Sequence record: OL744216.1 | Direction: 5' to 3' (one strand) | Length of the DNA: 64,000 nucleotides | Origin: Enterobacter phage vB_ExiM_F4M1E | Made by a program: the position numbers and the translations under genes | The notes under the pieces: generated by a model | What the model was told of the DNA's origin: nothing | Database searches by the model: none | What the model saw: only the letters and a program-made list of their open reading frames with translations | Part shown: positions 48,098-61,810 of the stretch, in pieces | How positions within the stretch are numbered: the stretch's first letter is position 1 | How the letters are laid out: each line of letters opens with the position of its first letter

Positions 48098-48127
48098 TAT
48101 TTGTGAGCTAAGGACGGCTCAGATTTC

Positions 48128-48582: not shown

Positions 48583-48618
48583 AAAATCTATACAGAGGTT
48601 CAAATCGAAATGCAAATC

Positions 48619-48720
48619 GTTATCATTCTCACCTCTACCGGGTCGGAGTGAGAATCGTTCTCATTTGCAAATGCAACTAATAATCATTCGCATTCAGCTT
48701 GTTGAATGATAATCATTTTC
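48619..48720. promoter_or_regulatory. cluster of ATTCTCAT-core operator-like boxes including an exact Fur-box core
   Basis: TTGAATGATAATCATTTTC (48702-48720) contains AATGATAATCATT, the central 13-mer of the Fur consensus; also GAGAATCGTTCTCATT and ATAATCATTCGCAT. Confidence 0.4.
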
Positions 48721-48758
48721 ATCTCCAGAATAGCGGGCAGGTCCGGTGATTGTCTCCG

Positions 48759-48786
48759 GGTCAATTCTCCCCGCTATGTGTATAAT
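48759..48786 (+). promoter_or_regulatory. candidate promoter (GGTCAA-N-TGTGTATAAT) with no ORF downstream
   Basis: consensus TATAAT preceded by TGTG; -35 weak. Confidence 0.3.
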
Positions 48787-48792
48787 ATAACC

Positions 48793-48995
48793 CAAGCCCG
48801 GCCCGGTTGCAAGCGTCTTTACAGTTCTTTACAAAACTATTTTAGGCGAACTACCGGCGATCCACCTTCCGACCTGGCCCCGGTGCCCGGTACGTTAGCC
48901 CCGCCTTTTCGCCGTGGGGTGGCGTCTCCTCTCCTGTATGTGTACATTATGCACCAGGCCCGGCGGGCCGTCAATACAAAAATCAAAATAAATTT
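48793..48995 (+). ncRNA. candidate non-coding RNA between orphan promoter and GGCCCGgcGGGCC hairpin + A/T-rich end
   Basis: 200 nt GC-rich structured segment without ORF, bounded by promoter-like and terminator-like elements. Confidence 0.2.
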
Positions 48996-48998
48996 TTC

Positions 48999-49027
48999 TT
49001 GACCTGCCAGGCAAGCCGGGCCACAAT
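48999..49027 (+). promoter_or_regulatory. promoter of array gene 1: TTGACC-N17-CACAAT
   Basis: spacer contains GGCAAGCCGGGCC. Confidence 0.45.
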
Positions 49028-49057
49028 GCAGGCACACCAACAAAAGGAGATCGACCC

Positions 49058-49390
49058 ATGCAACAGACGAAATATTTTATTGAAGGAACAGCCGCCGCCC
49101 ACGCCGGGCAGATCCGCGCCTGCCGCTACAATAAAGAAGAGAACCGCCGCGAATGGTTCGCCGGGTTCGATAGTGTGGATCGTGGTTTCGCCGTGTTTAA
49201 GATCCTCCCTGGCCCCGGCGCTGTTAAGCTGGCTGACCTGGACCCCGTTTATATTGGTGGCGTTAAACAATGCCAGGATCGCGCCGTTACCCTGCAACAG
49301 ACAGACCGCGCCGGGCGCTATGTCATTTATGATATGGCAACGGGCAAGCCGTACCAGGAAAGCACAAAATTAAATTACAAAAATATTTAA
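49058..49390 (+). CDS. array gene 1, hypothetical (110 aa)
   Basis: AAAAGGAGA RBS; GC-rich codons. Confidence 0.55.
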   Translation: MQQTKYFIEGTAAAHAGQIRACRYNKEENRREWFAGFDSVDRGFAVFKILPGPGAVKLADLDPVYIGGVKQCQDRAVTLQQTDRAGRYVIYDMATGKPYQESTKLNYKNI

Positions 49391-49417
49391 AATAATGCTT
49401 GACGGGGCCGACGATAG
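49389..49417 (+). promoter_or_regulatory. family promoter TTGACG-GGGCCgacgataGGCCC-CATAAT
   Basis: 17-nt spacer with GGGGCC/GGCCCC inverted repeat; CACATAGCGACGCAC motif follows. Confidence 0.6.
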
Positions 49418-49479
49418 GCCCCATAATTCACCACATAGCGACGCACACCGCGCCGCACTAACAAAGAGAGACCGTCATC

Positions 49480-49917
49480 ATGTTACATTCAATCAATAAA
49501 GAGCAAAAACTGTACGTCCTGAAGTGTGGCAACGGCTTTACCTGCTATGGGTTCGAAGTGCTGGACACAAACGCCCGCAAGGTTAAGCAGTGGTTAGAAT
49601 CTGAAGGTGCAACAGTTGAGGATCTGCCATATCGCAAGGGCACAAAGAAGCATTATAAAGCCTGTCAAGATATGATCGCCGCTGGTTGTGCTTATCATGC
49701 CAGAACGGGCAAACGCTGCCTTGCTGGACTCACCAAACAATTAAAGGGCCTGGAGGGTCGCCGGGTAGAAGTGATCACAATGTACGGCGAAAAGCGCCGC
49801 TTTATTGTGGGTCGCTCTACTGGCTGGATGCCTGCCCACCTGGAGATCGCCCGCGCTAACAGTAGCGGCGGCATGAGTGCAGAGCAGCAATATAAATCTG
49901 TAACCATCGTAAAATAA
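49480..49917 (+). CDS. array gene 2, hypothetical (145 aa, Cys-containing)
   Basis: CA-rich leader CTAACAAAGAGAGACCGTCATC-ATG. Confidence 0.55.
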   Translation: MLHSINKEQKLYVLKCGNGFTCYGFEVLDTNARKVKQWLESEGATVEDLPYRKGTKKHYKACQDMIAAGCAYHARTGKRCLAGLTKQLKGLEGRRVEVITMYGEKRRFIVGRSTGWMPAHLEIARANSSGGMSAEQQYKSVTIVK

Positions 49918-49930
49918 TTTAAAAAGAGTA

Positions 49931-49959
49931 TTGACACCGGGGCCACCTGGCCCCATAAT
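49931..49959 (+). promoter_or_regulatory. family promoter TTGACA-ccGGGGCCAccTGGCCCC-ATAAT
   Basis: consensus -35/-10, palindromic spacer; GCCCGGCAAA direct repeat follows. Confidence 0.6.
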
Positions 49960-50007
49960 ACAAACAAGCCCGGCAAATGGTGCCCGGCAAAATCAGAGAG
50001 TAAAGAA

Positions 50008-50230
50008 AATGGCTAAAGTAACCTATAAAAAATCACGTGGCGTCTCCTCTGTTAACCTGGCGGCGGTTGTAACCCTGCCCGCATACCGTACCCGTGACGA
50101 GGCGCGCGCCGTTGCCAGTAAGATCCGCGCCGCTGGCGTGACTCCGACAACGCCAACCAAAACGGCGGACGGCTGGCGCGTTACCGCAAAGCATAACGGC
50201 GGCACACTTTCCCGCAACACTCACCGCTAA
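50008..50230 (+). CDS. array gene 3, hypothetical (73 aa, start MAKVTYKK)
   Basis: AGAGAGTAAAGAAA RBS. Confidence 0.5.
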
Positions 50231-50239
50231 CCAATTGCA

Positions 50240-50262
50240 GGCCCCGCCGGGGGCCTTTTGTG
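50240..50262 (+). terminator. terminator-like hairpin GGCCCC-gccg-GGGGCC + TTTTGTGT
   Basis: same palindrome as promoter spacers, here followed by a T-run. Confidence 0.45.
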
Positions 50263-50275
50263 TGGAGTCAGTACC

Positions 50276-50620
50276 ATGACCAAACAGATCTACCATGTAC
50301 CGATCACGCCGCTTTTCCGTTGTCATATCTTTTATGACTGTAATGATCTTGCGGGGCAATGGATCGGCGATACCGATCAACAATATGATTTCCCGGAATG
50401 GGACGAACTAAACCGCCGTGTAAGCAACGCCGCACACAATGCCGATCCTGATAGCCTGGCGGACGTGGAACACTTCCCCGGCGGGGCCGCTTGCTTTCCT
50501 TATATTGAGATCACCGCGCCAACGTGGGCGCTATGTAAAGCGATGGGCGACGCCGTGATCCGTTGCATCCTGGACAATGGCGGGATCGTCGAACCAAAAG
50601 ACAACGGAATAAATATTTAA
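50276..50620 (+). CDS. array gene 4, hypothetical (114 aa, start MTKQIYHV)
   Basis: GGAGTCAGTACC RBS. Confidence 0.5.
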   Translation: MTKQIYHVPITPLFRCHIFYDCNDLAGQWIGDTDQQYDFPEWDELNRRVSNAAHNADPDSLADVEHFPGGAACFPYIEITAPTWALCKAMGDAVIRCILDNGGIVEPKDNGINI

Positions 50621-50639
50621 ATTATTTTCGTTTTAGGGG

Positions 50640-50668
50640 TTGACGCCGCCCGGGGTTACCCTCATAAT
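50640..50668 (+). promoter_or_regulatory. family promoter TTGACG-N17-CATAAT
   Basis: followed by CACATAGGGCGACGG motif. Confidence 0.55.
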
Positions 50669-50720
50669 GTACCACATAGGGCGACGGAATAACCCGCCGC
50701 CAAAACCAAAAGGTAACAGT

Positions 50721-50960
50721 ATGCAAACCGTAATGATTAGCCACCCGGATCACGCTTCAGACTTCTACGCCCCGATCTACGCCCCGCTTGATTGGCAACG
50801 CCAGGGCCTGCAAAAAACCGCCACGGGCTATGGCACAAAGATCCCAACGTCCTATATGTTGGACTATCAAGGCAAGCGCCGTCGGATCTACGTTGACCAG
50901 TACAGCAACAGCGGCCACACTTACATCATGATCAAAGGCGAAAAAATTACGGTCTGCTAA
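50721..50960 (+). CDS. array gene 5, hypothetical (79 aa, start MQTVMISH)
   Basis: CA-rich leader + AAAAGGTAACAGT. Confidence 0.5.
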   Translation: MQTVMISHPDHASDFYAPIYAPLDWQRQGLQKTATGYGTKIPTSYMLDYQGKRRRIYVDQYSNSGHTYIMIKGEKITVC

Positions 50961-50969
50961 AAATAATTG

Positions 50970-50998
50970 TTGACCGGGGGCCGGAAAGGCCCCATAAT
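50970..50998 (+). promoter_or_regulatory. family promoter TTGACC-GGGGGCCggaaaGGCCCC-ATAAT
   Basis: 17-nt palindromic spacer. Confidence 0.6.
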
Positions 50999-51030
50999 AC
51001 CAGACATACCAAACAAACGAGGCTTTACAA

Positions 51031-51261
51031 ATGAATCTGACTACTATCGGCGCTAACCAAACTATGATCACCCTGGCAAATGGCGCACAGGTTTTCTTTT
51101 CCTACAATACCCCGGTTGCGGCATACCTGCCCGGAGAGGGCTACTTGGTGACCGCCACAAAGCACAGCGCCACCACCTCAAAGCATGTTAATGCTTGGGC
51201 TGGCAAAGGTTGCGAGACCCGCCCACAGGAATTTTTTGATAATCTTATCAAATCCGCTTGA
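51031..51261 (+). CDS. array gene 6, hypothetical (76 aa)
   Basis: leader ACCAAACAAACGAGGC. Confidence 0.5.
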   Translation: MNLTTIGANQTMITLANGAQVFFSYNTPVAAYLPGEGYLVTATKHSATTSKHVNAWAGKGCETRPQEFFDNLIKSA

Positions 51262-51287
51262 CGCTGGTTTCTGCCGGGGTATATAAT
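51258..51287 (+). promoter_or_regulatory. family promoter TTGACG-N18-TATAAT with CCGGGG-tatataat-CCCCGG palindrome spanning -10
   Basis: palindrome arms flank the -10 hexamer. Confidence 0.55.
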
Positions 51288-51339
51288 CCCCGGCATAGGC
51301 AAGCGAAAGCAAACAACCAAACCGAAAGGATACCAAACG

Positions 51340-51720
51340 ATGAATATTTTCAACACTGTAAACGCCGCCGACATCAAAGAAATTTCCGTAACTGGCAAAC
51401 GTTGGTTTCAGCGTAGCTATGGCAACACGTATCACAGCGTAAGCGTCGCCGCCGTGGTATCACGTGAGACAGCCGAAAACTTGGGGGCTAATCCATCCCC
51501 GGCGGGATCTGGCGACGTGTGGATCGACCTGGGTTATGTTGGGTTCGCTTATGGTTATGATCGCGGGTTCGAACAAACCGCCCTGGCTATCCTGATCGAG
51601 GCTGTAAGCGATGCGCCGCAGGACTGGAAACAAAATTCATACGCTTGCCAGGTGGCAACGGCTTTAAATGTGCCTTACTCCGAAAACGTTTATGATGTTA
51701 GCCGCAAAAAGGATTTATAA
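51340..51720 (+). CDS. array gene 7, hypothetical (126 aa)
   Basis: leader CAAACAACCAAACCGAAAGGATACC. Confidence 0.55.
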   Translation: MNIFNTVNAADIKEISVTGKRWFQRSYGNTYHSVSVAAVVSRETAENLGANPSPAGSGDVWIDLGYVGFAYGYDRGFEQTALAILIEAVSDAPQDWKQNSYACQVATALNVPYSENVYDVSRKKDL

Positions 51721-51726
51721 TTTAGG

Positions 51727-51756
51727 TTGACACGGGGCCGGGTTAGGCCCCATAAT
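51727..51756 (+). promoter_or_regulatory. family promoter TTGACA-cGGGGCCgggttaGGCCCC-ATAAT
   Basis: palindromic spacer. Confidence 0.6.
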
Positions 51757-51788
51757 ACCCACAGACCCAAACAAAAGAGTAAAACGCG

Positions 51789-51998
51789 ATGATTAACGAG
51801 CAGCAAGTAAACGACGTAAAACATGAGGCTTATCAGGTGGCGATCCGTAGTGGTTCCCGCGCCGCCTTCAATCTGGTTGTTGAGTTGTACCCTGAACAGG
51901 CGGAAAATATTTTAATGCAGGTTTCCGTATTACTGGAAGCAACAAAGCACACCAAATTAAGCGCCGGGATCGATAAGCTGGCAAAAAGTTTAAAATAG
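51789..51998 (+). CDS. array gene 8, hypothetical (69 aa)
   Basis: leader CCCAAACAAAAGAGTAAAACGCG. Confidence 0.5.
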   Translation: MINEQQVNDVKHEAYQVAIRSGSRAAFNLVVELYPEQAENILMQVSVLLEATKHTKLSAGIDKLAKSLK

Positions 51999-52002
51999 TT
52001 GT

Positions 52003-52031
52003 TGACTCTTACCCCGTCCCGCTGGCATAAT
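52003..52031 (+). promoter_or_regulatory. family promoter TTGACT-N17-CATAAT with GTCCCGCT...AGCGGGAC palindrome spanning -10
   Basis: 8-bp arms flank the -10. Confidence 0.55.
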
Positions 52032-52086
52032 AGCGGGACTGATTAAGAGAAACACCACACAAACCAAACTAAAGAGAGTAAACATT

Positions 52087-52476
52087 ATGAACGCTAATTA
52101 TGACTTTTCCCAAATGGTTGTCGCATCCTCTACCGATCTGCGTAACTTCCGCAAAGAAAATAACTTTTACAAGGCCGTTCACCTGGTCGGGCTGGTAGAC
52201 GGGGAGATCAAAGATCTGGCGGAGGTTTCATTCTACGGCACCGGGAAAACCAACACGGCTATTTTGTGGATTCACTCCCCGATCCTGTCTCTCTATGGTT
52301 CAAGCGCTGGCAAGGCTGGCGGCTACGGTTACAACCGTGAGGACGCCGCTTTTCAAAGCGCCTTGCGGGGAATGGGGATCAAAAGTACAGGTTACGAATT
52401 GCCACGTGATTTTTTCCCGGCGCTTGCAAAGCATTTAGGGGTTGATGTATACTCAATCATCGAATCACACGGTTAA
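52087..52476 (+). CDS. array gene 9, hypothetical (129 aa)
   Basis: leader ACCACACAAACCAAACTAAAGAGAGTAAAC. Confidence 0.55.
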   Translation: MNANYDFSQMVVASSTDLRNFRKENNFYKAVHLVGLVDGEIKDLAEVSFYGTGKTNTAILWIHSPILSLYGSSAGKAGGYGYNREDAAFQSALRGMGIKSTGYELPRDFFPALAKHLGVDVYSIIESHG

Positions 52477-52481
52477 TATGA

Positions 52482-52796
52482 ATGATAACTATTCTCACAA
52501 TGCTGGGACTTGCGGCGGCGGCGATTTACTGCGTCGCTACTTATAAAGCGTCTGTATGGCGAAAGGGTCAAAAAATGTACGGCTATTTTGAATATGAGTA
52601 CAAAGGGGAGAAGGGATCAAGCCGGGACTATGGCGCGATGTTAGAGATCGATATGGTTGGCGCGATGAACTACCGCCAGGAGTTGGGCGCGGTGATCACG
52701 TATGAAGTTTACAAGTCATCTGAGGATGAGATCGGGCAGATAATTGATCAACGTTACTATATGGAACAGCAACAAAACAAACGCCGGAGAAAATGA
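52482..52796 (+). CDS. array gene 10, membrane-anchored protein (104 aa)
   Basis: N-terminal TM helix ILTMLGLAAAAIYCVATY. Confidence 0.5.
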   Translation: MITILTMLGLAAAAIYCVATYKASVWRKGQKMYGYFEYEYKGEKGSSRDYGAMLEIDMVGAMNYRQELGAVITYEVYKSSEDEIGQIIDQRYYMEQQQNKRRRK

Positions 52797-52933
52797 GAAT
52801 GATTCACACTAACGAGAACCGCCAAAAGGCACGACCCCGCGCCCGCCTGTCATATGCTGAAGCCGAGGACCGCCTACAGCGTGAAAAGAGCAACAAACAA
52901 CAGCGCCGCAAAACGCGCTATAACTGGGAGTAA
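52793..52933 (+). CDS. array gene 11, basic micro-protein (46 aa, MRMIHTNEN...)
   Basis: ATGA overlap; its start codon context AAATGAGAATGATT is itself a Fur-like/ATTCTCAT box. Confidence 0.3.
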   Translation: MRMIHTNENRQKARPRARLSYAEAEDRLQREKSNKQQRRKTRYNWE

Positions 52934-52977
52934 GCGCCCCGGCAGGGAAACACTAGGCCAAACCGTTTAAACCGCAC

Positions 52978-53005
52978 AGGGGGCCTTACAGGCCCCTTAT
53001 TTTTG
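52978..53005 (+). terminator. rho-independent terminator GGGGCC-ttaca-GGCCCC + TTATTTTT
   Basis: family palindrome used as terminator stem with a T-run. Confidence 0.6.
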
Positions 53006-53009
53006 ATCT

Positions 53010-53249
53010 ATGGGGTACACAATGCAAAACCTTTACAGCATGACAGAATTTATCCGCCTCCTGGCGGGCCGTCCGATGGGCTTTACCTGCCTTTACTTGG
53101 TAAACGACGGCAAAGGCTACCGGATAACCTCAAAGTCATTAGCCGCCATTGCAGCGCGGGAAGGGGTGAAGATCTCCACCTCTCAGGCGCTCATTGTTGA
53201 CCCGGCGACCGTGGCGACGATTGAGGCGATCCGAGTCACCGTAAAATAA
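53010..53249 (+). CDS. array gene 12, hypothetical (79 aa; alternative start 53022)
   Basis: no dedicated promoter, may be read through. Confidence 0.4.
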   Translation: MGYTMQNLYSMTEFIRLLAGRPMGFTCLYLVNDGKGYRITSKSLAAIAAREGVKISTSQALIVDPATVATIEAIRVTVK

Positions 53250-53273
53250 TTCAAATATTTTCATTCCGGGGCT

Positions 53274-53301
53274 TGACGCCCGGCCCCGGTTCCCCCATAA
53301 T
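53274..53301 (+). promoter_or_regulatory. family promoter TTGACG-N16-CATAAT
   Basis: followed by CACATAGCGACGCACACCGCGACGCAC direct repeat. Confidence 0.55.
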
Positions 53302-53352
53302 ACACCACATAGCGACGCACACCGCGACGCACCAAACAAAAGAGAGTCCGTA

Positions 53353-53772
53353 ATGTCTACTAAAAATCCTTTCCGCATCAAATCAGGTTTATCCGTTTAC
53401 GCACTGGCTTGCGGCTACGTTCAGCAAATCGACACCGAAGTAACCGGGGAAAGTATCCGGGTACAATTGAGAATGGAACACGGCGCGTTTCACGTGCAGG
53501 CGTACAACTTCACCGAACACGGGCGGATCGAATGGGTAGTAGAGGACATGATCGGCGACGCTCGCACACAATGGCAACGCCTTGTAAATCAGATTTTTGG
53601 CGACACCATAAAGGCGACCAAAAAGGATCGCCGCTATACGGTAAATCGTGAGTATCGCGGGGAGAGTGACCCGGCGTATGTGACCCGCTTTTGTGGGGAG
53701 TATGTAGACTACAGCGACACCGCCGCCGCTGGCTGGATTAAGGCCGCAGAACACAAGGCCGGAAAACTTTAA
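53353..53772 (+). CDS. array gene 13, hypothetical (139 aa)
   Basis: leader CACCAAACAAAAGAGAGTCCGTA. Confidence 0.55.
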   Translation: MSTKNPFRIKSGLSVYALACGYVQQIDTEVTGESIRVQLRMEHGAFHVQAYNFTEHGRIEWVVEDMIGDARTQWQRLVNQIFGDTIKATKKDRRYTVNREYRGESDPAYVTRFCGEYVDYSDTAAAGWIKAAEHKAGKL

Positions 53773-53780
53773 AATAGTTG

Positions 53781-53810
53781 TTGACGCCGGGCACCGTCCC
53801 GGCTTACAAT
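53781..53810 (+). promoter_or_regulatory. family promoter TTGACG-CCGGGcaccgtCCCGG-cttACAAT
   Basis: variant palindrome CCGGG/CCCGG. Confidence 0.55.
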
Positions 53811-53841
53811 ACCCAAACACAAACAAAAGAGAGTCAACACC

Positions 53842-53994
53842 ATGAAACATTATTTAGTAAACATCCCTGGCGTGGCTGGCCCGCTGAAAGTTTACGGCTA
53901 CGACGAACAGGACGCAAGAAAGCGCCTACGTGATCGGGAAGGGTACGGATCACGCCTCCCACGTGGCACAAAACTTTATTTGCAAAACGCTTGA
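53842..53994 (+). CDS. array gene 14, micro-protein (50 aa)
   Basis: leader CACAAACAAAAGAGAGTCAACACC; 3' end overlaps the next promoter. Confidence 0.4.
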   Translation: MKHYLVNIPGVAGPLKVYGYDEQDARKRLRDREGYGSRLPRGTKLYLQNA

Positions 53995-54020
53995 CGTGTG
54001 GTTATGCCGTCGCCTACAAT
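53991..54020 (+). promoter_or_regulatory. family promoter TTGACG-N18-TACAAT with TATGCCGT...ACGGCATA palindrome spanning -10
   Basis: 8-bp arms flank the -10. Confidence 0.5.
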
Positions 54021-54066
54021 TACGGCATAGACAAACGAAAGCAGACAACCAAACGAGGGTTAAATT

Positions 54067-54360
54067 ATGTTTGAAGTATTCGCCGGAATGTGCTTTTATG
54101 CCGCCGCCGCTTTAAAGCAGTGTGATGATTTTGTTGTGGAGTCCTACGACGATCCGCTGACGTGTGAGATCGTGGCGACCGATTACCGCCAGGACACCCG
54201 CTGGATTAACCCGGCTTGTATTCCATCGCCAGAAGTCGAACCGATGCCAGAAGGCGAAGAGATTCAAGATCCTGCCGTGGCTGTTACCTCGTTTTTTGTG
54301 GATAATCTGGACGCCGCCGCGCTGGTCCAAATGTACGCAAGCCAGGAGGCCGCACAATGA
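54067..54360 (+). CDS. array gene 15, acidic hypothetical (97 aa)
   Basis: leader CAAACGAAAGCAGACAACCAAACGAGGG. Confidence 0.5.
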   Translation: MFEVFAGMCFYAAAALKQCDDFVVESYDDPLTCEIVATDYRQDTRWINPACIPSPEVEPMPEGEEIQDPAVAVTSFFVDNLDAAALVQMYASQEAAQ

Positions 54361-54500
54361 ACCACAGCCGCAACATTGCAAAGCGCCGCCGCCCTAATTC
54401 CAGCGCCGCCAATGATGAGCGCCGGATCGCTGGTTTCATCGCTTGCGGCTACACCGTACAGCAGGCCCGGCAAATGGTAAAAGCAAAAGGCAGAAAATAA
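54357..54500 (+). CDS. array gene 16, basic micro-protein (47 aa)
   Basis: ATGA overlap with gene 15. Confidence 0.35.
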   Translation: MNHSRNIAKRRRPNSSAANDERRIAGFIACGYTVQQARQMVKAKGRK

Positions 54501-54503
54501 TTG

Positions 54504-54533
54504 TTGACACCGGGCACCGTCCCGGCTTATAAT
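54504..54533 (+). promoter_or_regulatory. family promoter TTGACA-CCGGGcaccgtCCCGG-cttATAAT
   Basis: near-duplicate of promoters at 53781 and 54755. Confidence 0.55.
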
Positions 54534-54571
54534 TCAGCTACACCAAACAAAACAGGCAAACGAGGCCACAA

Positions 54572-54751
54572 ATGAAATCATCCTTACTTTTCGCCCTGGT
54601 AGACATAGTGATCGGCAATGGTTGCGGTCAACATACCTTCATTGCAAACCGTCCCTATCCGCTCAAATCGTTGCAGGCCGACGCCCGCCTAACCGCCGGG
54701 CAGATCCGCCGCTACTTTCGTGAACCACACCCGGCAAAAACTGCAAAATAA
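54572..54751 (+). CDS. array gene 17, micro-protein (59 aa)
   Basis: leader ACACCAAACAAAACAGGCAAACGAGGCC. Confidence 0.4.
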   Translation: MKSSLLFALVDIVIGNGCGQHTFIANRPYPLKSLQADARLTAGQIRRYFREPHPAKTAK

Positions 54752-54754
54752 TTG

Positions 54755-54784
54755 TTGACGCCGGGCACCGCCCCGGCTTATAAT
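54755..54784 (+). promoter_or_regulatory. family promoter TTGACG-CCGGGcaccgcCCCGG-cttATAAT
   Basis: near-duplicate. Confidence 0.55.
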
Positions 54785-54814
54785 TACCGAACACAAACAA
54801 ACGAGGCTACAAAA

Positions 54815-55114
54815 ATGCAACAGGCAAACACTCTTTTCATTCTGGCAAACGTAGCGGATCACGTTGTGGCGTCACTGTCCAACGTGGCGGGCACCGTGCA
54901 GATCATTTGCCGCCATATGGATGACACCGCGCCGAACCGCCTACAAATCAACGTAGACCGTAAAGGGGCCGACTTTGTGATCTCTTATGATGCCATTTAC
55001 AACGGGCGGCGCTTTATGCAGGCCAAAAGCGACCCGATCCCGGCTAACTACATTCAGGAGGCGATCGCCGTCCTGGTAAACGACACTATCCCGGCGGGGG
55101 CTATGTTACCATGA
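54815..55114 (+). CDS. array gene 18, hypothetical (99 aa, start MQQANTLF)
   Basis: leader ACACAAACAAACGAGGCTAC. Confidence 0.5.
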   Translation: MQQANTLFILANVADHVVASLSNVAGTVQIICRHMDDTAPNRLQINVDRKGADFVISYDAIYNGRRFMQAKSDPIPANYIQEAIAVLVNDTIPAGAMLP

Positions 55115-55266
55115 ATCCGCATAAACTTTTAATCACCGCCTACCCAAACAAGGCGGATCGCCGTGAAACTTTGGACCGCTTAACCCTGTATTATCAGGAG
55201 GCCGGGCACAGTAAAGCGACGGCCCGCGCCTTGGCTAAAAAACGTTTACGTTTTGGTAAAAATTAG
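55111..55266 (+). CDS. array gene 19, basic micro-protein (51 aa)
   Basis: ATGA overlap. Confidence 0.35.
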   Translation: MNPHKLLITAYPNKADRRETLDRLTLYYQEAGHSKATARALAKKRLRFGKN

Positions 55267-55267
55267 C

Positions 55268-55296
55268 TTGACGCCCGGCCCGAAAGGGCCGATAAT
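55268..55296 (+). promoter_or_regulatory. family promoter TTGACG-cCGGCCCgaaaGGGCCG-ATAAT
   Basis: followed by CACATAGGGCG + GCGGGGA-atggt-TCCCCGC hairpin. Confidence 0.6.
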
Positions 55297-55342
55297 CTCT
55301 CACATAGGGCGGGGAATGGTTCCCCGCATTATCTAAGAGGTT

Positions 55343-55501
55343 ATGAATATGTTTACTTTGATGACTTGGGAACACGAATCAAGCGCCCCTGTCCGCCGGA
55401 CCTTTGAAAACTTATGCGCCGCTTATCGCCTGGCGCAAGGCGGTTACTATAAAGCCCAAATCATCGACGAAAATAATATTGTAATGTACGAATTTAAATG
55501 A
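55343..55501 (+). CDS. array gene 20, micro-protein (about 51 aa)
   Basis: TAAGAGG RBS; two in-frame ATGs. Confidence 0.4.
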   Translation: MNMFTLMTWEHESSAPVRRTFENLCAAYRLAQGGYYKAQIIDENNIVMYEFK

Positions 55502-55530
55502 TTGACATCCGGCCCGAAAGGGCCGATAAT
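55502..55530 (+). promoter_or_regulatory. family promoter TTGACA-tCCGGCCCgaaaGGGCCG-ATAAT
   Basis: duplicate of 55268 promoter. Confidence 0.6.
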
Positions 55531-55566
55531 GACCCCACACCAAACAAAAGAGAGAGAGACCGTAAA

Positions 55567-55773
55567 ATGATTACTATGATTCTTCAAAAGTCCCGCCTGA
55601 TTGATGTTACCGTTACCCTGTCCGCTTGCGGTGACACGTCCCGCCGGGCCGATCATTACCAGGTGACCGCTGTTAGTGATCGCGGCGCTGTCCTGCTGTC
55701 TGAAGTAACAGAGCATTTGCACGAGGCTTTTAAAACCTATTCAAAGTGGAAAGGCGACGAAGAAATAAAATAA
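55567..55773 (+). CDS. array gene 21, hypothetical (68 aa, start MITMILQK)
   Basis: leader CACCAAACAAAAGAGAGAGAGACCG. Confidence 0.45.
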   Translation: MITMILQKSRLIDVTVTLSACGDTSRRADHYQVTAVSDRGAVLLSEVTEHLHEAFKTYSKWKGDEEIK

Positions 55774-55781
55774 AAATCCGC

Positions 55782-55811
55782 TTGACGCCGGGGCCACGTT
55801 GGCCCCATAAT
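55782..55811 (+). promoter_or_regulatory. family promoter TTGACG-ccGGGGCCAcgtTGGCCCC-ATAAT
   Basis: palindromic spacer. Confidence 0.6.
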
Positions 55812-55845
55812 GCCACCACACCAAACGAATAAAGAGAATCACAAA

Positions 55846-56100
55846 ATGTTAAAATTCATCAAATCACTTTTCACCCGCACCACCCCGGCTTGCAAGTTGC
55901 CACCCCTGGAGGCTAAAGGCGTGATCGCTCGCAAAGTCTCAGAATTGTTTATCATTTCATTGGTTCACAACGGCGGAGACTGTTACGAAATCATCGAAAT
56001 GGGCCGCTACACTAAAACAGGGTCAAGCCGTGTCCGTTACGGTGAACACCGCGCCCGGAATCATTTTGATTCTGTATGCTGTATGGTGGGTGCAAAATAA
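55846..56100 (+). CDS. array gene 22, hypothetical (84 aa, start MLKFIKSL)
   Basis: leader CACCAAACGAATAAAGAGAATCAC. Confidence 0.5.
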   Translation: MLKFIKSLFTRTTPACKLPPLEAKGVIARKVSELFIISLVHNGGDCYEIIEMGRYTKTGSSRVRYGEHRARNHFDSVCCMVGAK

Positions 56101-56103
56101 ACC

Positions 56104-56132
56104 TTGACGGGGCCAACGTTAGGCCCCATAAT
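56104..56132 (+). promoter_or_regulatory. family promoter TTGACG-GGGCCaacgttaGGCCC-CATAAT
   Basis: followed by CACATAGGGCGACAC motif. Confidence 0.6.
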
Positions 56133-56184
56133 GTAACACATAGGGCGACACAACGCCGCCCACAAACAGAAAAGAGATCGTAAA

Positions 56185-56544
56185 ATGAGCAAATACACCC
56201 CGTGGGAACCAATGTACAAAATCACCCTGTCCGAGTGCAGCAAAAACGAACTGGATGGAATTGTCCGCGCCGCTACTGCCGTGATCCGTGGGCTTAACTT
56301 CAAACGTTTAACCTTCAAAGAAGTAAAACAAATTTTTGAAATGCCGGATCACAAGGCCGCTTCCCGCTTGGGGCTTACTGTAACATCGCAAGGGCTTTAC
56401 AAAGATCACGACCTTAAAGGGCCGCACGTGTGGCTTTTAGCTTGCGCCGTGGGCCGCACCATTGCCGACACTATCAAAGAGATGAAAGCGCTACGCGATG
56501 ACGCAAAAGCCCGCCGGGCCGCGCTGGAAGTGGCACAAAAATAA
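56185..56544 (+). CDS. array gene 23, hypothetical (119 aa)
   Basis: leader CACAAACAGAAAAGAGATCG. Confidence 0.55.
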   Translation: MSKYTPWEPMYKITLSECSKNELDGIVRAATAVIRGLNFKRLTFKEVKQIFEMPDHKAASRLGLTVTSQGLYKDHDLKGPHVWLLACAVGRTIADTIKEMKALRDDAKARRAALEVAQK

Positions 56545-56557
56545 TTTAAAAATAAAG

Positions 56558-56587
56558 TTGACGCCGGGAAGCGTTACGGGCTATACT
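56558..56587 (+). promoter_or_regulatory. family promoter TTGACG-N18-TATACT
   Basis: degenerate palindrome CCGGGaagcgttaCGGG. Confidence 0.45.
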
Positions 56588-56635
56588 CTTTTCATCGGGT
56601 CACAACAGACCAAAACAAACAAAGAGAGAAACAAA

Positions 56636-56713
56636 ATGAGCGTAATCTTCCTGGTATCTGTTTTCGTAGCTATCGCATCTTCTACCGCAATTTGTATCAA
56701 ACTGGGATACTAA
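56636..56713 (+). CDS. array gene 24, 25-aa hydrophobic peptide (MSVIFLVSVFVAIASSTAICIKLGY)
   Basis: own promoter and leader ACCAAAACAAACAAAGAGAGAAAC; single TM helix. Confidence 0.4.
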   Translation: MSVIFLVSVFVAIASSTAICIKLGY

Positions 56714-56717
56714 TAAA

Positions 56718-57110
56718 ATGACTACTTTCAACGTTTTAAACTTAAACGCTTTTATCGCGGGTTACATTGAGGCAATGTTTTTTGCAGAGTCCGCCACCGA
56801 TAGCGACGGCGAAGAAATCGAAAGTTTAGCCGGGTATGAGTTAAGCGCTGAAGCCCTGGACGCTGCCCGCATGGATTGCGCCCGCTTTATGGATGTTGCG
56901 CCGCTGTTACTCAAAGGGGCAATGTTGGCAGGGGTTGACTACGACCACACCCAGGCAGGCCGGGATCTATGGTTTAGCCGTCAAGGTCACGGCGTAGGAT
57001 TCTGGGATCGCGGACTTGGGACGATCGGTGATAAACTTCACGACGTGGCGCAGACTTTCGGATCAAAAAATCTGTTTATCAATGATGCTGGATTTATTGA
57101 GGTAGAATAA
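56718..57110 (+). CDS. array gene 25, acidic hypothetical (130 aa)
   Basis: follows peptide gene. Confidence 0.5.
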   Translation: MTTFNVLNLNAFIAGYIEAMFFAESATDSDGEEIESLAGYELSAEALDAARMDCARFMDVAPLLLKGAMLAGVDYDHTQAGRDLWFSRQGHGVGFWDRGLGTIGDKLHDVAQTFGSKNLFINDAGFIEVE

Positions 57111-57571
57111 TGAACCTTACAGATCTGAAGTATTACGATGAATTAACCCCAGCGGCGCAAGCTGAAGCCCGGCGCAACGTTGCCGCCAGTGTGCAGACTC
57201 ACCACGGGCGGGAAATCGGAAAGGCGTTTTTTAAATTCCAGCGGGACCCAAACAAGGCGATCAATGACCCGCTACACATCCGCCGGATCGTCAACGGCGG
57301 CGAAGCGTGGCGCAAGATCCGCCAGGAGGGCGACGCCTATCTAATCCGCTTTATCCGGTCCAATAAAGTGATCTTTACTGATTGCGGTGCGTATGTGGCG
57401 TATGTGGACGCCTTCACAATGTTTATTGATGGGTTGGAATACATACCCACAGCCGAACAGCAAAAGACGCTTAGAACGCCTTACATCGACGTTAACGGGC
57501 GCGGCCCGGCGTTTCATAATTGGCTATACCGTATGCACCACAAAATAAAGTTTTTCATGATCCGGGGTTGA
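57110..57571 (+). CDS. array gene 26, hypothetical (153 aa)
   Basis: ATGA coupling. Confidence 0.5.
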   Translation: MNLTDLKYYDELTPAAQAEARRNVAASVQTHHGREIGKAFFKFQRDPNKAINDPLHIRRIVNGGEAWRKIRQEGDAYLIRFIRSNKVIFTDCGAYVAYVDAFTMFIDGLEYIPTAEQQKTLRTPYIDVNGRGPAFHNWLYRMHHKIKFFMIRG

Positions 57572-57596
57572 CACCCGGCGGAATAGGGCCGATAAT
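57568..57596 (+). promoter_or_regulatory. family promoter TTGACA-N17-GATAAT
   Basis: followed by CTCATAGGGCG + CGGGGA-atgg-TCCCCG hairpin; overlaps the end of gene 26. Confidence 0.55.
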
Positions 57597-57649
57597 GTCT
57601 CTCATAGGGCGGGGAATGGTCCCCGGCCCAATGACCTGGAGTCAGTACA

Positions 57650-57901
57650 ATGGAAATCAAACACGTAATTTCTGCAAACGTCGCCGTTTTAGGTTCTGTA
57701 AGTGAAACCCGTGTGAGTCTCGCTAAATGGTGCGCCGCTCAAACTTTCGGGAGTTACGGCGAAAAGGTAACAGAGGTTAAGCGCTTGCTTTCCTTTGGTA
57801 ACGTGGGCCGCAAGTTGTTAACAGAGGATATCGCCCGCCGGGTTGAGATCCATTATTCACTTGCTCAAATCATCGTAAAAGAGATCGAAAGCGTAATTTA
57901 A
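57650..57901 (+). CDS. array gene 27, hypothetical (83 aa)
   Basis: GGAGTCAGTACA RBS. Confidence 0.5.
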   Translation: MEIKHVISANVAVLGSVSETRVSLAKWCAAQTFGSYGEKVTEVKRLLSFGNVGRKLLTEDIARRVEIHYSLAQIIVKEIESVI

Positions 57902-57909
57902 CCCGGCCC

Positions 57910-57925
57910 GGCCCCGCAAGGGGCC
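57910..57925. repeat. promoterless GGCCCC-gcaa-GGGGCC hairpin
   Basis: family palindrome without -35/-10 or T-run. Confidence 0.35.
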
Positions 57926-57937
57926 AACAGAGGACAA

Positions 57938-58162
57938 ATGAGAATGATTATCAAAAACACTTTGGGCAAAACTGATTTTCTGCGCTCGCTGGAGATCGGC
58001 AAGCCGCAAGCCTGGTATTGTAAAAAGCTGGCGCATGATGAAATGAAAGATTTTACAGCCACGTTAACCCGCGTTAAAATCAGCATTACCCAAAAGAAAG
58101 CGCTTTTAGTGATTGAGGGGCAGATCCCGCAAACCGTGATCATTGTTGAGAGGACCGCATAA
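57938..58162 (+). CDS. array gene 28, hypothetical (74 aa, MRMIIKN)
   Basis: AGAGGACAA RBS; start context AAATGAGAATGATTATCA is a Fur-like box. Confidence 0.45.
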   Translation: MRMIIKNTLGKTDFLRSLEIGKPQAWYCKKLAHDEMKDFTATLTRVKISITQKKALLVIEGQIPQTVIIVERTA

Positions 58163-58163
58163 A

Positions 58164-58388
58164 ATGGGGGCCAATACTCGCAACCGCTACGGCATAACGC
58201 GCCGTTTCGGGGTCTGCTATATGCTGGCAGATGATCCACAATATCGGGCCTTGCTGGAGGCTTACCAGGTCACCAAACTGGACGCCCAAAAGGGCCGGGC
58301 CGAACACGACGCCCACACCGCCAACATTAAAGCGCTTCACGACTTTTTAGCCGTCGCGGAAAAGCGTCACGACATCCGCCACAATTGA
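58164..58388 (+). CDS. array gene 29, hypothetical (74 aa, start MGANTRNRYG)
   Basis: GAGAGGACC RBS. Confidence 0.45.
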   Translation: MGANTRNRYGITRRFGVCYMLADDPQYRALLEAYQVTKLDAQKGRAEHDAHTANIKALHDFLAVAEKRHDIRHN

Positions 58389-58398
58389 GGGCCGAACC

Positions 58399-58593
58399 AT
58401 GATCACAGCTTCAGAGATCCGCCAAACGTTAGCCGCCTTGCGTTACCTCCACGCCTTACGCCGGGAAAGTGATCCGACTTATGCCGGGTCATGCCTGGCT
58501 AACGATGCCGAAAACGGGATCGCCACACTGAAAGAATTAAATGATCGCATGAGCGACAGCGACCGATCCGACTTTATCGGGGGCGAAATATGA
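58399..58593 (+). CDS. array gene 30, hypothetical (64 aa)
   Basis: ORF. Confidence 0.45.
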   Translation: MITASEIRQTLAALRYLHALRRESDPTYAGSCLANDAENGIATLKELNDRMSDSDRSDFIGGEI

Positions 58594-58898
58594 TCGCCAT
58601 TACGCCAACCGTTTTAGATTGGTATCGCCAGCAGATCGCGCCGCCGCTGGCTATCTTCAAACAGGCCGAAAGCAAACAGCGCCGGATCTCCATTCATGAG
58701 ATCATTACGCTTAACGCTGGGCAGAAAATGAATGTTTCCCGGTCCCATATGGGCAACACGTTAGCGCTTTTAAGTTTACGCCGCAAGCGTCAACGGTTAA
58801 CCCTGGAATCACTCCGCATGATGGGACAGCCGCACCAGGTCACCGGGGACAGGATCGCCAGGGCATGGAACCGGGCAAACAGTCGAAAGGCTGGATGA
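58590..58898 (+). CDS. array gene 31, hypothetical (102 aa)
   Basis: ATGA coupling. Confidence 0.45.
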   Translation: MIAITPTVLDWYRQQIAPPLAIFKQAESKQRRISIHEIITLNAGQKMNVSRSHMGNTLALLSLRRKRQRLTLESLRMMGQPHQVTGDRIARAWNRANSRKAG

Positions 58899-59041
58899 AT
58901 TAACAGTGTTCACAGGGGTTGACTTGTTCGCCCCTTTTTTGTTATCCTTTTGTCATGCGATGGCACCTGATGCAGGGGGAGACAAACACCGGACCTGCCC
59001 GCTATTCAGGGAGGCGGACCGGACCTGGGCCGCGCCGGGCA

Positions 59042-59063
59042 AATGAGAATGGTTATCATTCCC
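59042..59063. promoter_or_regulatory. Fur-like / ATTCTCAT box AATGAGAATGGTTATCATTCCC in intergenic region
   Basis: 14/19 match to Fur consensus. Confidence 0.35.
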
Positions 59064-59317
59064 AACAAAATCAAATACATACTTTAAAACCGTTGTCAAA
59101 TTTATTTCTTACCCCTGTATAAATGTACATGCCCGCCAAACGCTCTAAAACGCGTTTTAAGCCGTTTTGCCCTTCCCCGGTATCCTACACCATAAAAATA
59201 TAGATCGCCCGAAATCGGACTTTCGCACTTTTTGTCCTTGCAAACGTGAAATTTTTATGTTAGGCCTGAAGGGCTGAAAGCCGGGTGTACGTTGACAAAA
59301 CTTTACAAAACTCCCTA

Positions 59318-59346
59318 TTGACGCCCGGCCCGTTATCCCTGATAAT
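59318..59346 (+). promoter_or_regulatory. family promoter TTGACG-N17-GATAAT (second TTGACA 26 nt upstream)
   Basis: followed by CTCGTAGGGCGGC motif. Confidence 0.55.
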
Positions 59347-59398
59347 GTATCTCGTAGGGCGGCAATGATGCGACGGCCCACAAAGAGGGGACAGTAAA

Positions 59399-59638
59399 AT
59401 GAAAGAAATCATGACCTTGGTAAAATCCCGTATGTTACGTGGCGGATTCAACGCATACGCCGACGGCAATATCATTGCCACGGTCGCAAAAGTTACAAAA
59501 AATGATAATGATTCTCAGTTCGCCGGGCAGTATCGGATCTGTTTTACCCGTGGAAAGTTGCAAGGTAAAACGGCATACGCACCAGATTTTCAAGAGCTTA
59601 ATGATCGTATTTGCGCCGTTTTAGATTTTGCAAAATAA
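59399..59638 (+). CDS. array gene 32, hypothetical (79 aa)
   Basis: AAAGAGGGGACAGTAAA RBS. Confidence 0.5.
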   Translation: MKEIMTLVKSRMLRGGFNAYADGNIIATVAKVTKNDNDSQFAGQYRICFTRGKLQGKTAYAPDFQELNDRICAVLDFAK

Positions 59639-59641
59639 ATG

Positions 59642-59670
59642 TTGACGCTGGGGCCGAAAGGCCCCATAAT
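59642..59670 (+). promoter_or_regulatory. family promoter TTGACG-ctGGGGCCgaaaGGCCCC-ATAAT
   Basis: palindromic spacer. Confidence 0.6.
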
Positions 59671-59715
59671 ACCCACTCAAGCAACAAACCACTAAAAACA
59701 CTGGAGACCGTAAAA

Positions 59716-60030
59716 ATGACCAAATCTAAATTTTTCGAAATGCTGGATCGCTACCTGTCAAGCCATAACGAGTGGGCCAAACTGGGCAACGGGTACGACT
59801 CATACAAGGCCGAACAGTTAAAACCTTATGTTTTCCATGAGGACCCGGCGAACCTGGAGAAGTGGAAAGCGAAAGATCCGTCCTATCCTTGGACCGCTCA
59901 CGCTTCAGGCTTTACCCTGGCTGATTGTTGGCATGTTGAGGTAATGCAACATAAAACCGCTGAAGCCGCCGAAAAACAGCACGTAATTTTCACCCGCTGG
60001 ATCGCAGACTATCAAAAGGCCCGCGCTTAA
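59716..60030 (+). CDS. array gene 33, hypothetical (104 aa, start MTKSKFFEML)
   Basis: CTGGAGACCGTAAAA RBS. Confidence 0.5.
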   Translation: MTKSKFFEMLDRYLSSHNEWAKLGNGYDSYKAEQLKPYVFHEDPANLEKWKAKDPSYPWTAHASGFTLADCWHVEVMQHKTAEAAEKQHVIFTRWIADYQKARA

Positions 60031-60275
60031 TGTCCCGGCTTTTTAAAATCAATCTTCCATTGTGGGCCGCTTTAGCGGTCCTCATTGCCTTTTCTGGCGA
60101 TACGGTCAACAATTGGATTTTGTCCGCTGTACTTGGACCCGATCAAATGGTCACAACATTTTTAAACGCTTTCGGCGCTACACTGGCAACGGCCCGCCTT
60201 GCCTATCGTGGCAAATCAATAAACCGTTATGATCTGGCGCTATCACTGCCCGCCCTGGTTACCTGCCTAAACTGA
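60030..60275 (+). CDS. array gene 34, membrane protein (81 aa)
   Basis: two TM helices; ATGA overlap. Confidence 0.5.
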   Translation: MSRLFKINLPLWAALAVLIAFSGDTVNNWILSAVLGPDQMVTTFLNAFGATLATARLAYRGKSINRYDLALSLPALVTCLN

Positions 60276-60279
60276 AGAG

Positions 60280-60308
60280 GCCCGCCACCCCGGCGGGCTT
60301 TTCTTTTG
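60280..60308 (+). terminator. rho-independent terminator ending the plus-strand block
   Basis: GCCCGCC-acccc-GGCGGGC + TTTTCTTTT. Confidence 0.7.
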
Positions 60309-60547
60309 TCCCAAACGTGGCAAGCCTGGAGGCCCGGCCCGGTATCGGTCCGACTCCCCCAGTCAATCCCCTTATCACTTCCATTTGTGGAAATCAACAC
60401 TTAATTTTATTCACTTTAAAGCGCATAATTGAATAAACGAGGAGCTAACCCACTAACCAGGGTTGAGAGTAGCGGCCCGCATAGGGCCTTACAGCGCGTT
60501 TTAGCCCCTATTGACTTCTATCTGCAAACGTGTATCAAGCCGGATCG

Positions 60548-60623
60548 GTGAATCATCCATTTTCTTTACATAACTTGACACTATTTATTCATTTATCTGC
60601 ATAATGCTAGAATGATTCTCATT
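60548..60623. promoter_or_regulatory. promoter-like TTGACA...CATAAT overlapped by ATTCTCAT/Fur-like box GAATGATTCTCATT
   Basis: TTGACA 60575, CATAAT 60596, box 60610-60623: classic repressor-over-promoter layout. Confidence 0.3.
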
Positions 60624-60672
60624 TACTATCAATAACTTAACTTTTTATTGACTTCTGACAAAACACGGTTTT

Positions 60673-60818
60673 ACGTTCCCACGGATCAAGGGAGGGCGCG
60701 CCGTAGGCGCGACCAATAGAAAACAGGTAACGGATCACCCCCTTTGCTAACTCGCAAAGGATTGTGCTCACGTTCCCACGGTCAAGGGATGACCGCTATC
60801 ACCTGTTTTCTATTGGTC
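60673..60818. repeat. composite repeat: 21-bp direct repeat ACGTTCCCACGG(A)TCAAGGGA x2, perfect 18-bp inverted repeat GACCAATAGAAAACAGGT, two internal hairpins
   Basis: DR 60673/60770; IR 60711-60728 vs 60801-60818; hairpins CCTTTGC-taactc-GCAAAGG (60741-60760) and GCGCGCC-gta-GGCGCG (60696-60711). Confidence 0.5.
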
Positions 60819-61082
60819 ATTACGTAGTAATAAAACCGCTATTGTCAAGGGCTTTTTAGTGCCTACAGGCACAAATACGAATTATTCTCATCTGCATAAA
60901 GATTGGTTTTATCTGCATAAGTACGTAAACAGGCGGACCCGTACAGCGTAGCGGGGGCCGCATAGGCCCTACCGGGCAAGGGCCTTTATTGCTCACAAAA
61001 CAGCCGAAAGCGTAGTATTTGCCTGGCAAAATTCGCTCTTCGTGTCAAGCGAAAAATAATTTTTTTTTCTTTTTGCGTAAAC

Positions 61083-61226
61083 GATAATGATTCTCATCCG
61101 AGAACCATTCTCAAAGGGCTAATGCGAATCATTCTCATTATCATGCCACAAGGTGAGTGAGACTCATTCTCATCCAGGCCAGTGCTGGCGGGCCTCTCCA
61201 CGTGTTGGGAATGATTATCATTCACG
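61083..61226. promoter_or_regulatory. dense cluster of six ATTCTCAT / Fur-like boxes
   Basis: GATAATGATTCTCATC, GAGAACCATTCTCA, AATGCGAATCATTCTCATTATCATG, GAGACTCATTCTCATC, GGAATGATTATCATTCACG (AATGATTATCATT is 12/13 to the Fur core). Confidence 0.4.
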
Positions 61227-61800: not shown

Positions 61801-61810
61801 TGGAGGGAGA

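Follow-up and report, generated by a model that had tools for sequence, protein, structure and literature searches.

Arrays of Fur-operator-like boxes in the early region of a Certrevirus phage, with counterparts in T5-like and other viruses

A 64,000-nucleotide stretch of DNA from Enterobacter phage vB_ExiM_F4M1E (OL744216.1), hereafter the window, carries about 16 copies of a 15-bp palindromic box with a 7-1-7 architecture, TGA(G/T)AAT-N-ATT(C/A)TCA. The boxes form two non-coding arrays (A and B) and seven dispersed copies, all between 48.6 and 61.2 kb. The best reading of these boxes, judged from sequence comparison, is that they are predicted binding sites of the host iron regulator Fur, and their likely effect in cis would be the iron-dependent blocking of a few minor transcription units, a reading given a probability of about one half.

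By BLAST, the window belongs to Certrevirus (Vequintavirinae), a genus of rV5-like virulent myoviruses, with Klebsiella phage KaOmega as the closest complete genome (93.6% identity across the tested segment). The span at issue, 48619-61226, is the early region of the phage. It holds a block of small open reading frames (ORFs) on the plus strand, from 49.0 to 60.3 kb, lying between two long non-coding regions at 48.1-49.06 and 60.28-61.46 kb, which are slightly AT-richer than their surroundings (46% versus 50% GC). A bidirectional terminator sits at the convergent junction at 61820-61835. The strong sigma-70 promoters of the gene array belong to a type already known for the genus (TTGACG-N17-CATAAT; PMC7344957), and Certrevirus-type phages have terminally redundant, circularly permuted genomes (PMC3475682).

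The boxes are confined to this early region in numbers far above expectation. The word ATTCTCAT/ATGAGAAT has eight exact copies in the 64 kb, every one within 52793-61166. With up to two mismatches, TGAGAATNATTCTCA is matched at 14 sites, all in 48649-61206, against 0.03 expected from first-order Markov shuffles, and TGAKAATNATTMTCA, which allows G/T and C/A at the variable position, at 15 sites against 0.6 expected. Local, dinucleotide-preserving shuffles performed region by region give the same picture: three boxes versus 0.023 expected in region A (48100-49057), seven versus 0.020 in region B (60280-61463) and five versus 0.087 in the gene array (49058-60279), with none in the remaining 50.6 kb (1-48099 and 61464-64000), where the shuffles expect about 0.57. 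The resulting density is about one site per 0.8 kb. Non-coding DNA holds 11 of the 16 boxes, and three small early ORFs take their ATG from a box (52483, 52794 and 57939).

A first-pass annotation of this DNA had already described a concentration of Fur-like boxes around the gene array, and the 14-15 palindromes found against 0.03-0.6 expected bear this out, with some corrections of detail. One of its two 13-mers, AATGATTATCATT, lies at 61210 as given, and the other, AATGATAATCATT, begins at 48705 rather than 48704. The start-context word AAATGAGAATGATT is present at two of the three places listed (52791 and 57936); the third is AAATGAGAATGGTT at 59041, which has one mismatch and is followed only by a 14-codon ORF. 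The repeated word ATCTGCATAA does occur at 60911, its other copies lying at 60595 and 60890 instead of 60586 and 60891. The six boxes counted within 145 bp reduce to five full ones (61082, 61099, 61123, 61158 and 61206), the rest being overlaps shifted by 6 bp. Two comparisons that the annotation had proposed, one with a Fur matrix scored against shuffles and one with related phages, both come out in favour of the boxes, as set out below.

The identity of the boxes is indicated by several comparisons with Fur operators. The 19-bp Fur consensus GATAATGATAATCATTATC is matched at seven positions with up to four mismatches (at least 15/19; 0.1 expected) and at 26 positions when at least 14/19 is required (1.6 expected). 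A small Fur matrix, built from 10 literature boxes quoted in PMC10665472, yields 15 positions at or above 14 bits, all within 48612-61207, where a background of 0.75 is expected. These matches are paired 6 bp apart at seven of eight sites (48702/48708, 52789/52795, 57934/57940, 59039/59045, 59498/59504, 61077/61083 and 61118/61124), and overlapping sites shifted by 6 bp are the signature of Fur clusters (Chen et al. 2007, PMC2189734). The sequence of box 48707, TGATAATCATTTTCA, includes GATAATCATTTTCA, and this 14-mer opens a published Fur box, GATAATCATTTTCAATATC (PMC10665472 list). The iucA operator used in Fur protection assays includes GAGAATCATT. The published box GATAATCATTTTCAATATC is presumably that of sodA. 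A logo of 93 phage sites, aaaTGA[G/T]AAT[C/G]ATT[C/A]TCAttt, differs from TGATAAT-N-ATTATCA at heptamer position 4 only.

The variant with G at this position was followed into bacteria by a scan for the exact 19-mer AATGAGAATSATTCTCATT across 185,579 species of bacteria and archaea, with one genome per species. It occurs at no fewer than 120 bacterial loci, compared with about four expected by chance on our own estimate. The 134 ORFs that flank it among the matches listed are dominated by TonB-dependent receptors (Plug 13, barrel 10), ZnuA-type binding proteins (7), FeoB, FTR1 iron permeases and Fe3+-type solute-binding proteins (5 each) and members of the FUR family (4). Because it flanks bacterial iron genes, the G variant is an ordinary bacterial Fur operator, and the idea that GAGAAT marks a separate, non-Fur specificity is rejected on the same ground: the exact 19-mer lies beside iron-uptake genes and fur itself.

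The boxes are kept in relatives. Their positions, array A included, are retained in Klebsiella phage KaOmega, Cronobacter phage CR3 and Pectobacterium phages phiTE and P7_Pc, and with Proteus phage Mydo the hosts of the phages that keep them span four genera. KaOmega, whose genome is complete at 149 kb, has 12 boxes of the strict pattern, and every one lies in 79959-93274, the stretch homologous to the box-bearing ~13 kb. Mydo, which belongs to another genus and has 43% GC, has the layout of the window, with three long repeats followed by two boxes 29 bp apart and then by a conserved element; two array A boxes are retained, and further boxes lie at the far end of its early array. At heptamer position 4, G and T are freely interchangeable in one and the same site: where the window has TGATAATCATTTTCA, for example, KaOmega has TGAGAATCATTCTCA. 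Over five Certrevirus genomes, identity to the window reaches 89.4% in box columns versus 83.1% in other non-coding columns (p = 6e-5).

The same boxes recur in viruses well outside the genus. An exact scan of IMG/VR for AATGAKAATSATTMTCATT finds at least 120 loci, nearly all on contigs unrelated to this phage. Among the matches listed, the contigs range from 21% to 58% GC, often bear 3-10 boxes in a row and predominantly carry the G variant; the flanking ORFs are phage genes, several terminase small subunits among them, and not iron-uptake genes. Individual arrays reach six boxes in 220 bp (L009), ten in about 520 bp at 21% GC (L026) and five at intervals of about 28 bp (L057). The gene terL is found in 46 of the 120 loci listed, with the nearest box upstream of it in 33 of 39; this association is real as counted, may reflect ascertainment and where non-coding DNA lies, and was set aside.

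One of the IMG/VR loci is Salmonella phage SP01, a T5-like phage. T5 itself (NC_005859) has four box matches in 9554-9713, at 9554, 9658 (TGAGAATCATTATCA), 9693 and 9699, which correspond to three distinct boxes and one overlap shifted by 6 bp. They lie inside the annotated injection stop signal, in the first-step-transfer DNA of the left terminal repeat and near the major nick at 9748. Of nine box matches in the first 62 kb of T5, six are in the 10-kb repeat, and the next 50 kb holds the other three, all poor. When two boxes are used as a BLAST query against 50,697 genomes of isolated phages, 812 records match; the rows sampled come chiefly from T5-like and rV5-like phages, and a record can match in as many as 16 places, most of them in DNA that bears no annotation. 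At the protein level, the left 12 kb of T5 and the SP01 locus show no similarity to KaOmega. A cis element that unrelated phages share without sharing a neighbouring gene, and whose sequence is that of a near-universal bacterial regulator's operator, is most simply taken for a site of this regulator of the host. It is conceivable, at less than even odds, that Fur-operator arrays are a recurrent and independently acquired cis module of large virulent phages, including rV5-like Vequintavirinae, T5-like Demerecviridae (there within the first-step-transfer DNA) and more than 100 unrelated uncultivated lineages. Such a module would sense or exploit the host iron regulator at the start of infection, as an iron-dependent gate, an H-NS shield, a Fur sink or, in T5, a part of the injection stop.

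The placement of the boxes relative to promoters bears on what Fur could do. Promoter-like matches that coincide with boxes are all weak (8-9/12), and several are built from the box sequence itself. Elsewhere, boxes follow a few weaker promoter-like sites at a short distance (Table 1). The sites at 48.8 and 58.9 kb form a duplicated, inverted module in which a promoter-like site is succeeded by the leader GGAGACAAnCACCGGACCTGCCCGCTATTC and then by a box. A further word, (T)TTATCTGCATAA, is present in three copies (60595, 60890 and 60911, with a variant at 60516), each beside or between Fur-type boxes, and in T5 CTGCATAA stands 12 nt 5' of the box at 6100. The ATCTGCATAA words make an unconvincing promoter, the spacing to TTGACA being 19 nt, and they make no convincing DnaA box either.

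Table 1 Boxes, arrays and promoter-like elements in the early region (window coordinates; promoter-like sites are predictions)
Feature	Position	Strand	Remarks
Early gene array	49399-59670	+	~22 strong sigma-70 promoters, TTGACG-N17-CATAAT
Array A	48617-48721		Four 7-1-7 boxes; start-to-start spacing 32, 29, 29 bp
Array A box	48617-48631		Right half alone good
Array A box	48649-48663		TGAGAATCGTTCTCA
Array A box	48678-48692		TAATAATCATTCGCA
Array A box	48707-48721		TGATAATCATTTTCA
Leader GGAGACAATCACCGGACCTGCCCGCTATTC	48722-48760	-	Between leftward promoter-like site and box 48707; inverted repeat with 58968-58997 (reverse-orientation BLAST match)
Leftward promoter-like site TTGCAA-17-TATATT	48784-48812	-	Predicted; transcript would cross array A, box 48707 at +56 to +70
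Promoter-like site TTGCAA-18-TATACT	52424-52453		Box 52483 at +23 to +37
Box TGATAACTATTCTCA	52483-52497		Overlaps start codon (52482) of 104-aa early ORF
Box TGAGAATGATTCACA	52794-52808		ATG 52793 starts 46-aa ORF, homologue of KaOmega gp156
Box TGAGAATGATTATCA	57939-57953		ATG 57938 starts 74-aa ORF; like arrangement at CR3_151, P7_174
Second module copy	58919-58997	+	Promoter-like TTGACT-18-TATCCT (58919-58948), leader GGAGACAAACACCGGACCTGCCCGCTATTC (58968-58997), then box 59044
Box TGAGAATGGTTATCA	59044-59058		3' of repeated leader; ~+89 from promoter-like site 58919-58948 (+)
Box TGATAATGATTCTCA	59503-59517		Within 79-aa ORF 59399-59638; 19.7 bits with literature Fur matrix
Box CTAGAATGATTCTCA	60607-60621		In 1.2-kb non-coding region; immediately 3' of word ATCTGCATAA (60595)
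Box TACGAATTATTCTCA	60876-60890		Two ATCTGCATAA words (60890, 60911) directly after
Array B	61082-61220		Boxes 61082-61096, 61099-61113, 61123-61137, 61158-61172, 61206-61220; spacing 17, 24, 35, 48 bp

Under the reading of the boxes as host Fur sites, iron-loaded Fur dimers, already present when the DNA enters, would occupy both arrays and the dispersed boxes. Bulk early transcription would not be switched, because no strong early promoter is covered. The effect would instead be an iron-dependent occlusion or roadblock of minor units that have a box between +1 and about +90. Candidates are a leftward transcript that would run into the repeats at 48.1-48.7 kb, the module of promoter, leader and box that is duplicated at 58.9 kb, and those small ORFs that have their start codon within a box. 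A close alternative for the effect in cis, suggested by analogy with ftnA, is that Fur may shield the AT-rich non-coding DNA from H-NS. Sequestration of Fur after genome replication would be a side effect.

Several observations weigh against this reading. None of the ~22 strong sigma-70 early promoters is overlapped by a box, so that the boxes are rejected as operators of the main early promoters, whereas 83% of E. coli Fur clusters overlap a strong promoter (PMC2189734). Fur control of early expression, as the first-pass annotation had put it, is supported only in part: the boxes are Fur-like by every available sequence test, but they spare the strong promoters. The phage sites prefer G at heptamer position 4 (G 65%, T 29%), where the E. 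coli consensus has T. The spacing of 17-48 bp within the arrays shows no helical phasing. Alignment of array B with four relatives reveals near-complete conservation that extends to the spacers, so selection acts on more than isolated boxes. The adjacent ORFs, finally, have no visible link to iron physiology.

The boxes might instead serve as a sponge, much like the titration decoy for host Fur that the first-pass annotation had offered: about 16 sites per genome, multiplied by hundreds of copies, would titrate Fur and derepress iron uptake, RyhB iron sparing and nrdHIEF, which would favour the iron-dependent ribonucleotide reductases of the phage. The titration principle is established by the multicopy plasmid of the Fur titration assay, NrdA/NrdB are encoded by relatives, and a derepression of the Fur regulon, unexplained, has been published for lytic infection by other phages in iron-replete medium. 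A density near one site per 0.8 kb and the concentration of boxes in long non-coding stretches, off strong promoters, would also suit a sink. The exact positions, the start-codon boxes and the duplicated promoter-leader module are left unexplained by it, however, and T5, which by its annotation degrades host DNA early and would make titration useless, keeps its boxes all the same. Pseudomonas phage PAK_P4, cited for inducing host iron genes, has no box enrichment (2 versus 0.9 expected in 93 kb), and a sponge is rejected as the cause of that published induction in PAK_P4. On balance a sponge is unlikely to be what the boxes are for. The annotated gene content and layout of PAK_P4 (KC862300) recall those of rV5-like phages, with an early array, a NadV/PRPP synthetase pair and a tRNA block.

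Only a little less probable, and still improbable, is a dimeric DNA-binding protein of the phage itself with a Fur-like half-site preference, which might, for example, silence some of the early region or set its timing; the first-pass annotation had raised a phage-encoded repressor of this kind, and it gains no positive support. It would fit the restriction of the boxes to the early region and the preference for G at heptamer position 4, but among bacteria the G variant is itself a normal operator of Fur. Weak winged-helix candidates do exist upstream of the boxes, namely the gp133 homologue at 43760-44002 (PadR-like winged helix, E = 0.004, below the family threshold) and the small gp134 homologue at 44060-44254; both are rejected as the binder, being absent or truncated in phiTE, P7_Pc and Mydo, all of which have boxes. 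A tblastn search of KaOmega and the window with an E. coli Fur query finds no Fur homologue, a search for a co-occurring binder that was not exhaustive over the whole phage proteome turns up no other candidate, and the ORFs adjoining the arrays have neither a Pfam match nor a DNA-binding domain. The same boxes, moreover, occur in T5-like phages and many unrelated contigs, and the left 12 kb of T5 and the SP01 locus show no similarity to the KaOmega genome.

A role of the arrays in a replication origin, a packaging site or an architectural site, with the boxes as iterons for a phage initiator or terminase, or for a host factor recruited into a nucleoprotein complex, is harder still to credit. 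Other repeat families and a very stable hairpin structure crowd both non-coding regions, leftward promoters fire into the repeat region, the T5 boxes lie within the injection stop signal, and the boxes of viral contigs tend to precede terL or, in several cases, flank terS. Against this, the boxes are palindromic and not directly oriented iterons, they have no gene for an initiator or a terminase beside them, terL of KaOmega lies about 56 kb from the nearest array in a circularly permuted genome, and the gene for the T5 origin-binding protein, at 59.5 kb, is distant from the T5 boxes. Almost no weight is left for the possibility that the boxes arose by chance in AT-rich non-coding DNA or are incidental to the coding of an N-terminal peptide MRMI. 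The modest difference in GC content and the three boxes that supply start codons speak for it, but the shuffles, with 0.02 expected per region where 3 and 7 are observed, already refute it; most boxes lie outside coding sequence, and coding can produce neither the palindromic symmetry nor the conservation across genera.

The boxes both resemble and depart from systems already described. Like classical enterobacterial Fur operators (iucA/aerobactin, fhuA, fepA-fes and sodA), they show the 7-1-7 palindrome and sites overlapping at 6 bp; unlike these, which cover -35 and -10 elements, they cover no strong promoter and lie on a virulent phage, beside genes with no known link to iron. Virulent cyanophages carry PhoB and NtcA host boxes, so that their lytic programme is likewise partly wired to a host nutrient sensor, but those sites stand at promoters of identifiable auxiliary metabolic genes, unlike the arrays described here. 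The T5 untranslated repeat region 3/injection stop offers a parallel as conserved, repeat-dense, non-coding and early-entering DNA that holds the same boxes. T5 nevertheless belongs to another phage family, its repeat region is interpreted in the literature through DnaA boxes, and a detailed published account of that region makes no mention of Fur or iron; because the Certrevirus genome is circularly permuted, no fixed end enters first.

The array of Fur sites at E. coli ftnA is similar in having several sites in a row, in AT-rich DNA and off the promoter core, and there Fur acts as an anti-repressor against H-NS through occupancy, not occlusion (Nandal et al. 2010, reviewed in PMC3788343). 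The phage differs in having two arrays and dispersed boxes, which have no one target gene downstream in common. Prophage DNA, too, carries Fur boxes, at nohA (the Nu1 homologue of Qin), at ynaE/ydfK of Rac/Qin and at the sitABCD moron of lambdoid phages. The ynaE/ydfK Fur clusters overlap the translation start (PMC2189734), as do boxes 52483, 52794 and 57939, and the strong Fur site of nohA adjoins a terminase small-subunit gene, as in several viral contigs. These, however, are single sites in temperate or cryptic prophages and within the host regulon, whereas about 16 are present here, in a strictly virulent phage and with conservation at the level of the subfamily.

Other elements lie in the two non-coding regions. 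On the 5' side of array A, three further repeat families occupy 48119-48595. The first, of GATTTCA type, has five copies of about 25-33 nt (48119-48267), and the second has three copies (48308-48383). The third consists of three 55-nt units (48400-48595), which contain GGTCTCGATCG ... CGTATTCTC in each case and are also found in Mydo. This segment may be an origin-like or packaging region. On the minus strand at 48785-48940, a candidate small RNA of about 150 nt is bounded by a leftward promoter of the strong type, TTGACG-17-CATAAT (48974-48946), and by a hairpin that resembles a terminator (48806-48792). Its identity is 98% in KaOmega and CR3 and 88% in Proteus phage Mydo, well above that of flanking DNA, and its consensus fold has -32 kcal/mol with only three compensatory pairs. 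On the plus strand at 60665-60830, a very stable fold is predicted (-68.8 kcal/mol, z = -6.3; no Rfam match), with an 18-bp perfect inverted repeat (60711-60728/60801-60818) and the direct repeat ACGTTCCCACGG at 60673 and 60770; the element may act as a structured RNA or as a hairpin in the DNA. The stretch 60669-60858 has about 85% identity to non-coding DNA of Salmonella phage SSBI34.

On the 3' side of array B, at 61230-61330, the series GTGCGTATAAGGTGTATTATGTTAAATGG ... GTCAATA ... GTGTAAAGATGGGCAAGATGGTAGAC is almost invariant in the five Certrevirus genomes, and its first part is also present in Mydo (25858-25890); no convincing sigma-70 promoter or ORF in this stretch accounts for the conservation. 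The 92-aa ORF that follows on the plus strand, 61464-61742, is annotated as gp183 in KaOmega and is unannotated in CR3, phiTE and P7_Pc. It was considered as an autoregulated repressor and rejected: its translation is not protein-like, it is unconserved in CR3, phiTE and P7_Pc and it has no Pfam match, so that the ORF is unlikely to be a gene. The idea that the non-coding region is the pseudo-ToxI locus known from phiTE was likewise rejected, as that locus sits elsewhere, at 106.7 kb. Over 47.5-62.5 kb, an Rfam-type search gives nothing at or near the gathering score (three chance-level matches, E = 0.15 to 0.64, 16-66 bits below gathering), and a tRNA search finds none.

Full-text literature searches return Fur boxes only on prophage morons (sitABCD) and cryptic-prophage genes, and none reported for virulent phages. 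The Fur motif itself is known; its conserved arrays in the early regions of virulent phages appear not to have been described previously. The boxes are also a new candidate component of the long-unsolved T5 injection stop signal. In conclusion, if Fur binds these boxes, two large and widely used groups of phages couple the first minutes of infection to the iron status of the host. Since rV5-like and T5-like phages are common in therapy cocktails, and gut, blood and plant tissue are all iron-limited, the efficacy of such phages could depend on iron.

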